DNA of 64,000 nucleotides. It comes from Sphingobacteriaceae bacterium. Lineage in GTDB: Bacteria; Bacteroidota; Bacteroidia; Sphingobacteriales; Sphingobacteriaceae. Location: assembly GCA_035575925.1 (NCBI GenBank), contig DATLXK010000070.1:1406-65405 (forward strand). The letters run 5' to 3'. Under the pieces are notes generated by a model. It ran no database searches, was not told the origin of the DNA, and worked only from the letters and a program-made list of their open reading frames with translations. The translations under genes and the position numbers were made by a program. Positions 34,448 through 49,597 of this stretch are shown piece by piece; position 1 is the stretch's first letter; every line of letters starts with the position of its first letter.

Positions 34448-34519
34448 GGCCCGTTCGTCTAGGGGTTAGGACGTTAGATTTTCATTCTAGAAACAGGGGT
34501 TCGATTCCCCTACGGGCTA
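34448..34519 (+). tRNA. tRNA-Glu (anticodon UUC)
   Basis: Hand-folded cloverleaf. Acceptor stem GGCCCGT/ACGGGCT with discriminator A. D arm GTCT-AGGGGTTA-GGAC. Anticodon arm TTAGA-TTTTCAT-TCTAG. T arm AGGGG-TTCGATT-CCCCT. No encoded CCA. Confidence 0.9.
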
Positions 34520-34778
34520 CTTTTATCAGTAACAAAAAAACAAAAACCCTGCAAATGGTATCTTTGTCGGCGGCGGTGAAATTTATACCCTGACGTGCTT
34601 AGCTTCTTGATCTATTTTTTAAATAAATCAAAGTAGTCGTTGAAAACATAAAGCTTGTTCCTTTGGGCTCCAGATATTTCTCTTAAAATTTCGAGTTGCT
34701 CCAGGTCATTAATCAATTTATATGCTGTTACATATGATTTTTGAATGATTGCTTCAACTTTGGCGACATTGATTACGG
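34498..34778 (+). repeat. Left copy of the 281-bp direct repeat (tRNA-Glu 3' end + 92-bp spacer + 3' end of the Fic gene)
   Basis: Aligned by eye to 49317-49597 at roughly 97% identity. Confidence 0.9.
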
Positions 34779-35736
34779 GTTGGGTATATAAATAATCGAC
34801 AACTTTTTGTGCATTTAGACTTCGGTTACCCAAACCTTTTAGTTTCGCTTCCAGGCTTTTTTGCAGTTGAAGAATTCCATCAAATGTAGTGACGCCTTTC
34901 TTTGCGGTTTCTATAATTCCAGTTAAGAAAAATTTCAACCATTGGTTGATGTTGTTTTGAGTCCTGGCCAGCATCAAGTTGTCATAATAAAGTTGCCTGT
35001 TATTTTCGAAAAAGTCAGAAAGATATAAGATAGGTTGTTTAATAACCCCTTTGCTCACCAGATAAATTGTAATAAGGAGCCTGCCTACCCGGCCGTTTCC
35101 ATCTAGAAACGGGTGAATGGTTTCAAATTGATAATGAATAATAGCAATTTTGATAAGATCGGGCGACGGGTTTAAGTCATCATTTGCAAATTTTTCAAGA
35201 TCAGACATAAGATCATCGATCGAGGTATGTACCGGCGGAATAAAAATTGCATCATTTAAAGTTGCACCACCAATCCAGTTCTGACTGCTTCGATATTCTC
35301 CCGGGAGCTTATGTTCTCCTCTAACTCCTTGCAATAAAATCTTATGAGTTTGTTTAATTAACCGAGAAGAAAAGGGTAGGCGGTGTAGTAACTTTACAGC
35401 TTCGTTCATTGCACTTATGTAATTCTGAACCTCTTCCCAATCACCTCTTTTCTCCGCAGTTATTTCTTCTTTACTTAAAAAGGCCTCCTCCATATTGGTT
35501 TGGGTTCCTTCGATTTTAGAAGATTGAGTCGCTTCCTTGGCAATATGCATTCTTATAAATAATTCTATGTTCACATATTCTGAATACATATCAAGCCGTC
35601 CTAAATGTCTATCAGCTCTACTCAATAATTGTATTACCTCCATATCATCAAGATGCCATACTCTGTTGATAGGGTTAGGTTGAAAGCTTTTATAATACCC
35701 TTGGTTGATTTGCTTTCCTGACTCGTATTTGTTCAT
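34612..35736 (-). CDS. Fic family protein (Fic_N + FIDO + C-terminal winged-helix)
   Basis: Active-site motif HPFLDGNGRVGRLL and N-terminal inhibitory-helix motif SSKIEG ([ST]xxxE[GN]). Confidence 0.9.
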   Translation of the reverse strand: MNKYESGKQINQGYYKSFQPNPINRVWHLDDMEVIQLLSRADRHLGRLDMYSEYVNIELFIRMHIAKEATQSSKIEGTQTNMEEAFLSKEEITAEKRGDWEEVQNYISAMNEAVKLLHRLPFSSRLIKQTHKILLQGVRGEHKLPGEYRSSQNWIGGATLNDAIFIPPVHTSIDDLMSDLEKFANDDLNPSPDLIKIAIIHYQFETIHPFLDGNGRVGRLLITIYLVSKGVIKQPILYLSDFFENNRQLYYDNLMLARTQNNINQWLKFFLTGIIETAKKGVTTFDGILQLQKSLEAKLKGLGNRSLNAQKVVDYLYTQPVINVAKVEAIIQKSYVTAYKLINDLEQLEILREISGAQRNKLYVFNDYFDLFKK

Positions 35737-35747
35737 CTTTTCCTAAA

Positions 35748-35855
35748 CTTAAATAAAGATATGATTATTTAAGAAAACAGCAAAAAAACTTAAATAAGAA
35801 AAGTGGTATTTAAGTTTTGGCCTACTTTTCTTAACTAAGGGAAGTGTTATTTAAG
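35748..35855. promoter_or_regulatory. Three phased palindromic sites (CTTAAATAA-N8-TTATTTAAG type) upstream of the Fic gene
   Basis: S1 at 35748-35773 (9-8-9, perfect), S2 at 35789-35814 (8-10-8), S3 at 35830-35855 (9-8-9, one mismatch). Start-to-start spacing is 41 bp. S1 ends 12 nt from the Fic ATG. Confidence 0.55.
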
Positions 35856-35905
35856 AATGAGAAATATTCCTCTGCTGTAATAATCAATTATCTGTCACCT
35901 GCCTC

Positions 35906-36202
35906 TTATTTTAACAACCCCACATGCAACAATAAACCTAATGCCGGTGAATGTGTGCGGGGTACATAAGGTTTGAAGTTTGCCGTTTTAAAGTCATTTA
36001 GTTCTTTATAAGCCATCAAAACTCCTTTTAAATCCATTTTCCAATTTTTACCTGATGATTTTCTTATGAAGTTCATGGATGAACCGATAATGGAAATTAC
36101 TTCGTATTGCTTTCCTCTAAGACTTTTAAAAGTTTTTAAAGGCATTCCCAAATCAGAGAAATCGCTATAGGTGATTTTTGGCTGGCTCTTTTTATAGTTC
36201 AT
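35906..36202 (-). CDS. Hypothetical 98-aa protein (no family recognised)
   Basis: ATG-initiated ORF. Its start overlaps the stop of the hsdS 3' relic in the way an operon partner would. Confidence 0.45.
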   Translation of the reverse strand: MNYKKSQPKITYSDFSDLGMPLKTFKSLRGKQYEVISIIGSSMNFIRKSSGKNWKMDLKGVLMAYKELNDFKTANFKPYVPRTHSPALGLLLHVGLLK

Positions 36203-47474: not shown

Positions 47475-47783
47475 ATGAAACAGAAGCTCATTCTTTTACC
47501 GAAGGCTCAACAGGTTTTAAATGACTTGGGTGAAAATATTAAGCTTGCACGGCTAAGAAGAAAATTAAGTACCATTCAAGTCGCGGAACGGGCCGGCATA
47601 AGCAGAGCAACGCTCTGGCAAATTGAAAAAGGCATACCTTCTGTAGCGATGGGTGCGTACTTTCAGGTGCTATTTGTACTGGGACTGGAAAAAGACTTCT
47701 TAAAACTTGGGGCAGATGATGAACTGGGACGTAAGTTACAGGATGCGGGGCTGCTGGTTAAAGAACGTGCTCCTAAAAAATAA
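47475..47783 (+). CDS. hipB: XRE-family HTH antitoxin (HipB-like)
   Basis: HTH region LSTIQVAERAGISRATLWQIEKG. I prefer the ATG at 47475 over the TTG at 47457. A 5-nt gap separates it from hipA. Confidence 0.8.
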   Translation: MKQKLILLPKAQQVLNDLGENIKLARLRRKLSTIQVAERAGISRATLWQIEKGIPSVAMGAYFQVLFVLGLEKDFLKLGADDELGRKLQDAGLLVKERAPKK

Positions 47784-47788
47784 ATATC

Positions 47789-49045
47789 ATGGCAAAGAAA
47801 GTATTTGTTTATGCAGACTGGCATGGTTTACAGGCAGCGGCATTAATCGGCTTACTAACGGCGGAAACTGTTAGGAGGAAAGAGATATTTTCATTCGAAT
47901 ATACTCGTGAATGGTTGCAATCTCCGCATAGTCAATATCTTGACCCTGATCTGCAATTGTTTCCAGGGCGGCAGTTTCTACGGGATGAAAAGCCAAACTT
48001 TGGGATGTTCCTGGATTCTTCACCGGATAGATGGGGAAGGGTGCTGATGAAAAGAAGAGAAGCAATTATAGCCAGAAAAGAAGGACGCAAAGCCGAAACT
48101 TTATATGAATCAGATTTCTTGCTTGGAGTTTTCGATGGTAGCAGAATGGGCGGTCTGAGATTTAAGACTGAAGAGGAAGGACACTTCTTAAGTTTTGAGG
48201 AGGGTCTGGCTGCTCCTCCATGGGTGAATCTAAGGGATCTGGAATATGCAAGTTTGCAACTGGAAAAAGACGACGTCGGCAGTGATGAGGAAGATCTGAA
48301 ATGGCTGAATATGTTGATTTCTCCCGGCTCATCGCTTGGAGGAGCCCGGCCAAAGGCCAATGTAAGAGATAAGGATGGAAATTTATGGATAGCCAAATTT
48401 CCAAGCAATAACGATGAACTTGATATAGGTGCATGGGAAATGGTTGTTCATGAGCTTGCTGCCAGTTCCGGTATTGCAGTCGCGCCTGCCATGCTTCAAA
48501 AATATACAGCGAAGCACCATACATTCTTAATTAAGAGGTTTGACAGGATCGACCTGACAAAAAGAATTCATTTTGCATCCGCTATGACCCTTTTAGGTTA
48601 TCGTGATGGGGCAGATCATCACGAAGGAGTTAGCTATCTAGACTTAGCCGCTCTTATTCAGCAGAGATGCGAAAACATACATGAAAACCTTAAAGAGCTT
48701 TGGAAACGGATAGTATTCAATATCATGGTCAGGAATACCGACGATCATTTACGTAATCATGGATTTTTACTTTCTCCCGATGGCTGGGGACTTTCTCCGG
48801 CATATGATATGAATGCTGTAAGTGCTGGCACTGGACTAACATTGAATATTTCCGAAAATGACAACTCTCTGAGCCTGGAGCTTGCACTGGAAGTGGCTCA
48901 GCATTTTAGAATTAAGCCAAAGGAAGCATCGGCAATGATCGATGATATGAAGAAAAGTATTTCTCACTGGCGGCGAATTGCTTCTCAATATAAATTATCC
49001 AGCCGGGAACTGGATGCAATGTCGGAAGCGTTTTATGAGGAATAG
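47789..49045 (+). CDS. hipA: HipA-family serine/threonine kinase toxin
   Basis: HipA N-terminal coupling domain, GSSLGGARPK P-loop-like motif and catalytic RNTDDHLRNHGF. Confidence 0.9.
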   Translation: MAKKVFVYADWHGLQAAALIGLLTAETVRRKEIFSFEYTREWLQSPHSQYLDPDLQLFPGRQFLRDEKPNFGMFLDSSPDRWGRVLMKRREAIIARKEGRKAETLYESDFLLGVFDGSRMGGLRFKTEEEGHFLSFEEGLAAPPWVNLRDLEYASLQLEKDDVGSDEEDLKWLNMLISPGSSLGGARPKANVRDKDGNLWIAKFPSNNDELDIGAWEMVVHELAASSGIAVAPAMLQKYTAKHHTFLIKRFDRIDLTKRIHFASAMTLLGYRDGADHHEGVSYLDLAALIQQRCENIHENLKELWKRIVFNIMVRNTDDHLRNHGFLLSPDGWGLSPAYDMNAVSAGTGLTLNISENDNSLSLELALEVAQHFRIKPKEASAMIDDMKKSISHWRRIASQYKLSSRELDAMSEAFYEE

Positions 49046-49170
49046 TACTAAGCAGTCGGCTCAGCCTATTAACGGAGAGCTAATAATTAGACGACACTTT
49101 TTTAACATGTACCCAATAGTATATTTTGGAGTACATATCAGTTGCTTTTTACAGTTAAAGAGGGAACCGG

Positions 49171-49310
49171 ATTCAATAAAAATTTGCCTAAAATCTAATT
49201 CTTCCGTATCTTTATTATGCCCACTTGCAGCCCTGAAATTGCTTTTTGGTGAAGTATTTGGTGAGCAGGCCAAAAACTGATTTTGCAATTTATTGATTTT
49301 CAGCATAGTA
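49171..49310 (+). repeat. Copy 2 of the ~140-bp element-end repeat, abutting the tRNA 3' fragment
   Basis: See copy 1. Here the phased boxes are GGTGAAG-N4-GGTGAGC. Confidence 0.75.
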
Positions 49311-49316
49311 GGAGAC

Positions 49317-49597
49317 GGTTCGATTCCCCTACGGGCTACTTTTATCAATGCCAAAAAAAACAAAAACCCTGCAAATGGTATCTTTGTCGGCGGCGGTGAA
49401 ATTTATACCCTGACGTGCTTAGCTTCTTGATCTATTTTTTAAATAAATCAAGGTAGTCCTTGAAAACATAAAGCTTGTTCTTTGGGCTCCAGATATTTCT
49501 CTTAAAATTTCGAGTTGCTCCAGGTCATTAATCAATTTATATGCTGTTACATACGATTTTTGAATGATTGCTTCAACTTTGGCGACATTGATTACGG
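49317..49597 (+). repeat. Right copy of the 281-bp direct repeat (tRNA-Glu 3' 22 nt at 49317-49338 + spacer + Fic 3' relic)
   Basis: Matches 34498-34778. Differences seen by eye are about 8 substitutions, one 1-nt insertion and one 1-nt deletion. Confidence 0.9.
49432..49597 (-). pseudogene. 3' relic of a Fic gene (frameshifted)
   Basis: Encodes ...VINVAKVEAIIQKSYVTAYKLINDLEQLEILREISGAQR, identical to the Fic1 C-terminus, then a 1-nt deletion shifts the frame. It is truncated at 49597. Confidence 0.85.

Follow-up and report, generated by a model that had tools for sequence, protein, structure and literature searches.

The window analysed here is a stretch of 64,000 nucleotides from a Sphingobacteriaceae bacterium (contig DATLXK010000070.1, C70 below). 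It contains a tRNA-Glu(UUC) gene, the sole tRNA detected by ARAGORN in the window, of which a second identical copy is located on contig C52. Directly downstream lies a 15-kb island (34521-49597) with a type I restriction-modification (R-M) operon, genes for two Fic proteins (Fic1 and Fic2) and a TIR-domain protein, and a hipBA-like toxin-antitoxin (TA) pair. The origin of this island, and of the unusually long direct repeat at its ends, is the subject of this report.

The two copies of the repeat (34498-34778 and 49317-49597) are 97.2% identical over 282 alignment columns (E=1.8e-130) and run in the same direction from the tRNA 3' end into the 3' end of the Fic1 gene, just as an earlier note on this DNA had described. 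The repeat was recovered by a repeat finder, a whole-genome search and BLAST, and exactly two copies of its 281 bp are present in the 3.24-Mb, 74-contig genome. Each begins with the final 23 nt of the tRNA and ends with the final 167 nt of Fic1, with a spacer of 91 nt in between. The tRNA part common to both copies measures 23 nt with the ARAGORN boundaries and 22 nt with those of Rfam; the 23-nt attachment (att) core GGTTCGATTCCCCTACGGGCTAC occupies 34498-34520 and 49317-49339. Base-by-base alignment revealed eight differences between the copies, a divergence of 2.8%. Four of them are clustered at 34529-34533, directly past the tRNA end. Positions 34632, 34639 and 34735 carry one substitution each, and the last difference is a 1-nt deletion opposite 34660, which shifts the reading frame of the right Fic piece.

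At its distal end this frameshifted Fic piece is fused to a truncated DUF1801-like gene at 49597/49598, a feature of the earlier note that our comparison bears out. The plus strand from 49598 encodes EKELAGYKTGKGSVQFPLNKPMPLDLINKIVEFRIKEH, which is 65% identical to residues 78-120 of DUF1801-type proteins from two relatives (E=3e-18 and 9e-16). The full-length proteins of these relatives comprise 120-124 residues. Since the match is confined to residues 78-120, approximately 77 N-terminal codons are missing from the DUF1801 gene.

Chimeric contigs classically arise at tRNA genes, and the genome is a draft or metagenome-assembled genome of 74 contigs. A chimeric join or a duplicated contig end at the tRNA gene, the artefact that the earlier note had named as a danger to its own hypothesis, was therefore considered as the source of the repeat, but its probability is very small. 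The copies differ at eight positions including one indel, and Logan contigs of SRR7741809, which are 100% identical to the window, cross from the right arm into the repeat and from the repeat end into the flank. One of these contigs spans 23483-34477 and ends inside the tRNA gene. Another spans 37418-49346; it begins in hsdS, takes in hipA and the right arm and reaches 30 nt into the right repeat copy. A third starts at 49568, 30 nt ahead of the junction between the Fic and DUF1801 fragments, and runs into the right flank. The contig ends at 34477, 49346 and 49568 lie 30 nt inside each repeated stretch, a length that corresponds to about one k-mer only if k = 31 is assumed for Logan. This independent assembly supports all three repeat boundaries. 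In addition, the junction of right arm and core takes the same form in five other genomes, and an assembly artefact is unlikely. Exact-protein look-ups returned only SRR7741809 and SRR13094682, both of which carry island genes. In the Logan contigs of SRR13094682 the right flank (49683-51547) is present at 99.5% identity and the TIR gene at 100%, so that at least a part of the island is also carried by a slightly different strain of the species.

Between the repeats no recombinase was found, which agrees with the earlier note. A six-frame search of the whole genome with PF00589 yielded eight matches, none of them on contig C70, and no recombinase is among the island open reading frames (ORFs) annotated with Pfam, PADLOC and NCBIfam. 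This annotation covers nearly the whole 15 kb and leaves intergenic gaps of at most 585 bp. For serine recombinases and transposases, at which no six-frame HMM search was aimed, the ORF annotation contains no candidate and the gaps offer no space for one. The best genomic match to the integrase of the element family described below has 43% identity and lies beside a tRNA-Pro gene on another contig. This integrase belongs to a mobilizable element on contig C23, which also encodes a relaxase. The element was tried as helper or source of the island and rejected, given the 43% identity of its integrase and a relaxase without a match to the relaxase fragment of the island.

Relatives of the island were found by searching with the 146 bp ahead of the right repeat copy. 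This right-arm sequence together with the core is 82-89% identical in five genomes from other Sphingobacteriaceae genera (G262, G287, G251, G066 and G016). The tRNA-Glu gene lies 26.8 kb upstream of the right end in G066 and 11.7 kb upstream in G016. The direct repeats in these relatives are short, with 23 nt in G066, 18 nt in G016 and 17 nt in G262, and do not extend beyond the tRNA 3' end; the core GGTTCGATTCCCCTACGGGCTAC itself also flanks the elements in G066 and G287. The weak similarity that had been reported to extend backwards from the right repeat copy to GATTTTCA (49295) is real. Every family member keeps it in its right end, and it is therefore not due to chance. The motif GGTGA is repeated in the right arm of every family member and also in the canonical left arms, and we infer that these repeats are putative arm-type integrase sites. 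A structured RNA in the right arm or in the spacer was considered and rejected; Rfam matches only the tRNA, and the z-scores of folding range from about 0 to +1.

The intact relatives define a family of integrative mobilizable elements (IMEs) that is specific for tRNA-Glu and integrates at the T-loop/3' end of this gene in Sphingobacteriaceae. Its canonical order is tRNA-Glu, left arm, tyrosine integrase, minus-strand cargo, relaxase with MobC/NikA, hipBA, one or more variable genes, a right arm of about 100 nt and the 17-23-nt core. The element in G066 follows this order with a terminator hairpin in the left arm and a single variable gene behind hipB and hipA. Its integrase of 406 aa adjoins tRNA-Glu and has the domains Arm-DNA-bind_5, SAM_5 and Phage_integrase, its minus-strand cargo comprises a BrxC/D-like ATPase and a helicase, and its relaxase has 317 aa. 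Relaxase and MobC/NikA are intact in both G066 and G287. Islands with an intact integrase at the same tRNA, for which the earlier note had proposed to look, thus exist in these two genomes. To our knowledge, neither this tRNA-Glu IME family nor its host has been described before. The family was previously unannotated and is now defined by its core, both arms and its gene order, a definition that annotators may use to recognise similar integrase-less islets at tRNA genes.

Tandem arrays and decay both occur in the family. G287 harbors a live tandem array at tRNA-Glu. Its first element, 25.5 kb long, ends in a core, and immediately behind this core a second element begins with its left arm and its own 404-aa integrase. 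Core and left arm are repeated at 77% and the integrase gene at 65% nucleotide identity. A third integrase fragment is located about 7.5 kb further on (G287:C2:457887-491000); no third core was found within 67 kb. The integrase of G016 is truncated. In G195 a mini-remnant (G195:C50:64800-66400) consists of tRNA-Glu, one Fic2-type gene, a right arm and a degenerate core, followed by another left-arm terminator, and matches the module of Fic2 and right arm inside the window island. Decay is therefore common in the family.

Against this template the island can be read piece by piece (Table 1). The backbone pieces keep the canonical order (relaxase residues 1-100, C-terminus of the post-relaxase ORF, HipBA, right arm), and the block of R-M genes and Fic1 occupies the cargo position. 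Both repeat copies follow the canonical left arm for only 36 nt past the core, as far as CTGCAAAT in the loop of its terminator hairpin. A deletion joint at about 34556/34557 fuses the left arm to the 3' flank of Fic1. The island has neither the remaining part of this arm nor the integrase, and the GGTGA repeats of canonical left arms are gone. The relaxase fragment is 80-88% identical to G066 at the amino acid level, and MobC/NikA is missing from the island. HipBA, the conserved right-hand TA module of the family, is 94% identical to G262 and 46-59% to G066 (aa). Fic2 is 85% identical (aa) to the single gene of the G195 remnant at tRNA-Glu. A first copy of the right end follows Fic2, and we read it as the junction of two accreted elements, termed E1 and E2.

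Table 1. Features of the tRNA-Glu locus and of the island (window coordinates).
Feature	Position	Strand	Remarks
tRNA-Glu(UUC)	34448-34520	+	ARAGORN; Rfam 61 bits; intact integration target
Left repeat copy	34498-34778		core + 36-nt left-arm remnant + 55-nt spacer + last 167 nt of Fic1
Left (P') arm remnant	34521-34556	+	homologous to G066, G016 and G287 up to CTGCAAAT
Fic1	34612-35736	-	374 aa; Fic_N + Fic; PADLOC SoFic E=4.6e-119
98-aa orphan ORF	35906-36202	-	
hsdS 3'-end relic	36206-36349	-	88-93% identical to 37324-37467
TIR-domain protein	36382-37317	-	311 aa; PADLOC ThsB1 E=1.4e-50
HsdS	37319-38644	-	type I R-M specificity subunit
PDC-M04B and PDC-M04A/DUF3800	38911-40062	-	151 aa and 231 aa; PADLOC E=4.9e-53 and 2.5e-71
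HsdM	40066-41685	-	type I R-M
HsdR	41686-44823	-	type I R-M
Mobilization-module wreck	45019-45540	-	
Post-relaxase ORF fragment	45019-45177	-	C-terminal 53 aa of the gene after the relaxase in G287
Relaxase fragment	45240-45540	-	residues 1-100 of ~317; frameshift at residue 40/41
3' fragment of a 214-aa ORF	45566-45674	+	36 aa, 83%; ORF near the right end of the G262 element
Fic2	45762-46871	+	369 aa; DUF4172 + Fic; SoFic-like E=6e-46
First right-end copy	46921-47059	+	79% to 49171-49310
Possible degenerate core	47060-47084	+	13/25 matches
hipB-like gene	47457-47783	+	helix-turn-helix protein
hipA-like gene	47789-49045	+	kinase
Second right-end copy (P arm)	49171-49316	+	GGTGA(A/G) direct repeats; abuts core
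Right repeat copy	49317-49597		core 49317-49339 + same left-arm remnant and joint + Fic1 3' stump
Fic1 3' stump	49432-49597	-	frameshifted; residues ~320-374 of the 374-aa Fic1
DUF1801-type C-terminal remnant	49598-49770	+	~43 of ~120 codons; fused to the Fic stump

From this anatomy we consider it quite probable that the island is a fossil array of about three accreted tRNA-Glu IMEs and that the 281-bp repeat is made up of the att core and of a left end duplicated from an integrase-less element. From the first element, E1 (34521-47059), the deletion that joined the terminator loop to the 3' flank of Fic1 would have removed the integrase and the greater part of the left arm; two thirds of the relaxase and MobC would be lost as well. 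Only hipBA and the right arm would be left of E2 (about 47085-49316). The third element, E3 (49340-49597), would be a 258-bp stump that repeats the left end of E1 with the same deletion joint. An exact-pattern scan with the joint CCCTGCAAATGGTATCTTTGTC gave no match in other genome or metagenome contigs. Both repeat copies share this one lineage-specific joint and therefore descend from one integrase-deleted element. Consequently, the duplicated unit was already integrase-less, and its duplication was not a fresh self-catalysed integration. Presumably the unit was doubled in situ, re-inserted with help in trans or inserted through RecA.

What the sequence shows is the anatomy, the kinship with the family, the deletion joints and the lack of a recombinase; the order and the enzymology of the duplication we infer. 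By one route, the composite may have been duplicated in tandem, either because sister chromosomes exchanged at the cores or because an excised copy inserted again, with a later deletion of the distal copy from inside Fic1 into the DUF1801 gene. By another, a circle of the element may have inserted beside an older stump of the same lineage, either by an integrase acting in trans or by a RecA crossover within the 281 bp. All routes would lead to an identical final structure, and the stump may have come first as well as the tandem. Tandem element copies and a subsequent deletion to a stump at the truncated DUF1801 gene had already been proposed in the earlier note, and the 17-23-nt repeats of the relatives, the G287 array and the second right end all speak for them. 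The idea that a repeat running past the tRNA core marks two element copies likewise stands. The present island as a self-integrating arrival, in contrast, does not, given the integrase-less joint in both copies.

The second of these routes can be sharpened to a single RecA crossover of the Campbell type, in which an integrase-less circle enters an older stump of tRNA, spacer and Fic1 fragment and duplicates the shared 281 bp. It would account well for a repeat that runs exactly from the joint of right arm and core (49316/49317) to the deletion edge of the stump (49597). The genome is without a cognate integrase, the truncated left arm should impair site-specific recombination, and between the copies there is a divergence of 2.8%, with each side showing derived states. 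However, the same final structure would result if an integrase catalysed a crossover in the core and a deletion followed, so that the sequence does not discriminate between the two. The Campbell insertion moreover needs a circle that is made and delivered from an element without integrase, intact relaxase and left arm. We judge it as unlikely. Far less probable still, and hardly worth retaining, is a single ordinary integration without a second element, in which the 281 bp would be a natural block of identity between attP and attB. Some tRNA-integrating islands do have identity blocks longer than the tRNA part. In the present family, however, the repeats have only 17-23 nt and stay within the tRNA gene, while the 281-bp block holds the 3' end of a cargo gene, of which the right copy has a fragment with a shifted frame, joined to an unrelated gene that is itself truncated. 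Furthermore, both copies hold the lineage-specific joint that is absent from the other scanned genome and metagenome contigs.

Several observations weigh against the array of accreted IMEs that we favor. The degenerate core after the first right end matches at only 13 of 25 positions, and the boundary between E1 and E2 could also be an internal rearrangement. Polarisation of the repeat differences by the nearest outgroup, G153 (84% nucleotide identity), identifies the frameshift of the stump at 34660 as a derived state. At 34632 and 34735 G153 agrees with the stump and the left copy is derived, with more distant outgroups disagreeing; position 34639 is uninformative. A divergence of 2.8% with derived states on both sides would fit an old in-situ duplication or two separate arrivals. 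Due to the truncated left arm, a site-specific re-insertion of the integrase-less unit is awkward, and no enzyme is demonstrated for the duplication. The empty site that the earlier note had expected, tRNA-Glu followed by an intact DUF1801 gene, was not found; the flank DNA gave neither an empty site nor an island-free allele in 40 relatives and five close genomes. Exact-pattern and protein-guided scans of genomes and metagenomes did not yield a usable empty site either. Guided by the PhnB-like neighbor, the metagenome scan yielded 76% (aa) as its best match; a locus with the order tRNA-Glu, DUF1801 and PhnB was not among the results. Composition, which had also been suggested as a check for foreign origin, is uninformative; the GC content of the island is 37.6% vs 38.3% for the genome (26th percentile of 15-kb windows) and thus not distinctive.

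The DNA of the 15-kb island itself has no match in three congeners and two other close genomes. The congeners G002 and G003 keep the pair of GAPDH and tRNA-Glu, with unrelated genes downstream. Compared with them, about 34 kb after tRNA-Glu are variable (window position 34521 to beyond its end; G000:C70:35926-69710), and the three species each have different genes in this interval. Synteny resumes only at C70:69710-70479, about 20 kb to the right of the island and outside the window. The point of resumption adjoins a topoisomerase IB gene in G002 and G003, a gene that is absent from the present genome. Hence, the flank with DUF1801, PhnB and NamZ is not established as ancestral chromosome. The earlier claim that part of a chromosomal DUF1801 gene had been removed therefore holds for the truncation, whereas the chromosomal status of the gene does not follow. 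A search for a further att core where the 34-kb variable region ends distally found none, with up to 5 mismatches allowed.

In its present state the island fails the definition of an IME, because it has neither an integrase nor a working relaxase. Contig C70 is without a PF00589 match, unlike G066 and G287 with their own integrases, the relaxase part is frameshifted, MobC is missing, no oriT was located, and genes of a type IV secretion system (T4SS) are absent from the annotated ORFs. The att-core direct repeats derived from the target tRNA are present at 34498 and 49317. Right arm, HipBA and gene order place the island in the same family as the elements of G066, G016, G262 and G287. The internal core at 49317 with a second left end, together with the additional right arm at 46921-47059 and the weak core-like sequence behind it, has the form of a tandem array. 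A cis-mobilizable element (CIME) no longer possesses the genes for integration and transfer and has kept functional attL and attR sites (PMC5704250). In the island these genes are lost and attR, composed of right arm and core, is intact. It could nevertheless be called a CIME only with doubt, since no more than 36 nt of the left arm are kept in the truncated attL. As judged from its gene content, the island is now unable to excise site-specifically or to be mobilized. With no integrase above 43% identity to that of the family, a broken relaxase and an attL without GGTGA repeats, it is therefore presumably fixed unless homologous recombination deletes it. RecA-mediated recombination between the 281-bp repeats, regarded in the earlier note as the only obvious route to loss of the island, is plausible in this role since a cognate integrase is missing from the genome.

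The cargo consists of predicted defence genes, namely two SoFic-like genes, a ThsB-like TIR gene, a type I R-M system with a PDC-M04 pair, and HipBA; by their appearance these anti-phage genes may still work. The PDC-M04B/A genes are embedded between hsdM and hsdS and look like a candidate defence pair within the type I R-M operon. The TIR protein is 41% identical to the product of a cargo gene in the G287 element. No ThsA-like protein was found among the island ORFs, and Thoeris, which comprises ThsB and ThsA, is accordingly not assigned. The TIR gene is bracketed by direct repeats of 124-144 bp (88-93% identity) that correspond to the 3' end of hsdS (36206-36349 and 37324-37467). The left one is a dead relic followed by the 98-aa orphan ORF. 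At 47419-47475 an inverted repeat of 22 nt with 91% complementarity and a 13-nt loop overlaps the start of hipB and probably serves as the HipB operator. Just upstream of the Fic1 start, three imperfect palindromes of the type CTTAAATAA...TTATTTAAG are found with a 41-bp spacing (35742-35857); they may be an operator array.

Fic1 is absent from the three congeners and patchy across other genera and phyla. Homologues with 85%, 75%, 74% and 72% nucleotide identity occur in other genera, none of them beside tRNA-Glu. With its 80 closest loci in several phyla, Fic1 is a widely mobile gene. A tRNA gene lies within about 700 nt of Fic in eight of these 80 SoFic-like loci (L089-L168). The tRNAs concerned differ (Arg, Cys, Asp, Met, Asn, Pro), and the convergent geometry of tRNA and Fic seen in the window recurs at L115, L136 and L153. 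We take only tentatively into account, as a rather improbable idea, that a tRNA 3' end plus a Fic stump might serve as a portable homology anchor, by which integrase-less islands of the lineage with their defence cargo would be swapped between strains through RecA-mediated Campbell insertion and excision at the repeat rather than site-specifically. If this were true, SoFic genes beside tRNAs, as in the eight loci, would reflect a recurrent role as landing pad.

The pathway from integration through decay to an att-only element, with further integration at the retained att site, is described for integrative and conjugative elements (ICEs), IMEs and CIMEs (Guedon et al. 2017, PMC5704250). The island shares site-specific integration at a 3' end, gene loss, accretion at att and decayed members with the ICESt1/ICESt3-related islands of Streptococcus thermophilus (PMC5704250). 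It differs from them in its host, a member of the Sphingobacteriaceae, and in its target, tRNA-Glu. Moreover, the repeated unit is the same integrase-less derivative rather than two distinct elements, the distal copy is a 258-bp stump, and due to its truncated attL arm the island is probably not even cis-mobilizable. The intact relatives in G066 and G287 resemble NBU1 and NBU2 from Bacteroides (tRNA-Leu and tRNA-Ser) and Tn6031 from Sphingobacterium (tRNA-Pro), with an integrase beside the tRNA, a single relaxase accompanied by an accessory Mob protein, a short core in the tRNA 3' end and no T4SS. Elements of the NBU1/NBU2 type have a tyrosine integrase, a MobP-type relaxase and a TA module. 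For NBU1 such a module is listed in PMC5704250, and G066 and G287 carry one as well. This likeness is one of architecture at the level of the phylum; the target tRNA differs from that of NBU1 and Tn6031, the cargo is mostly defence, and the window copy is without integrase and has a broken relaxase.

Thus, the island is a case of ordinary tandem accretion and decay, a kind of process that is already understood, and it reveals no new mechanism. Its value is that of a dissected example from the Sphingobacteriaceae of how a tRNA-linked defence island may originate, namely from stacked IMEs whittled down to cargo, a TA module and backbone scraps, which persists as a defence island after the loss of mobility. 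Like other tRNA-linked defence islands it packs several defence and TA systems between a tRNA gene and a variable flank. What sets it apart is a descent from mobile elements that can be followed, gene by gene, to a defined IME family.

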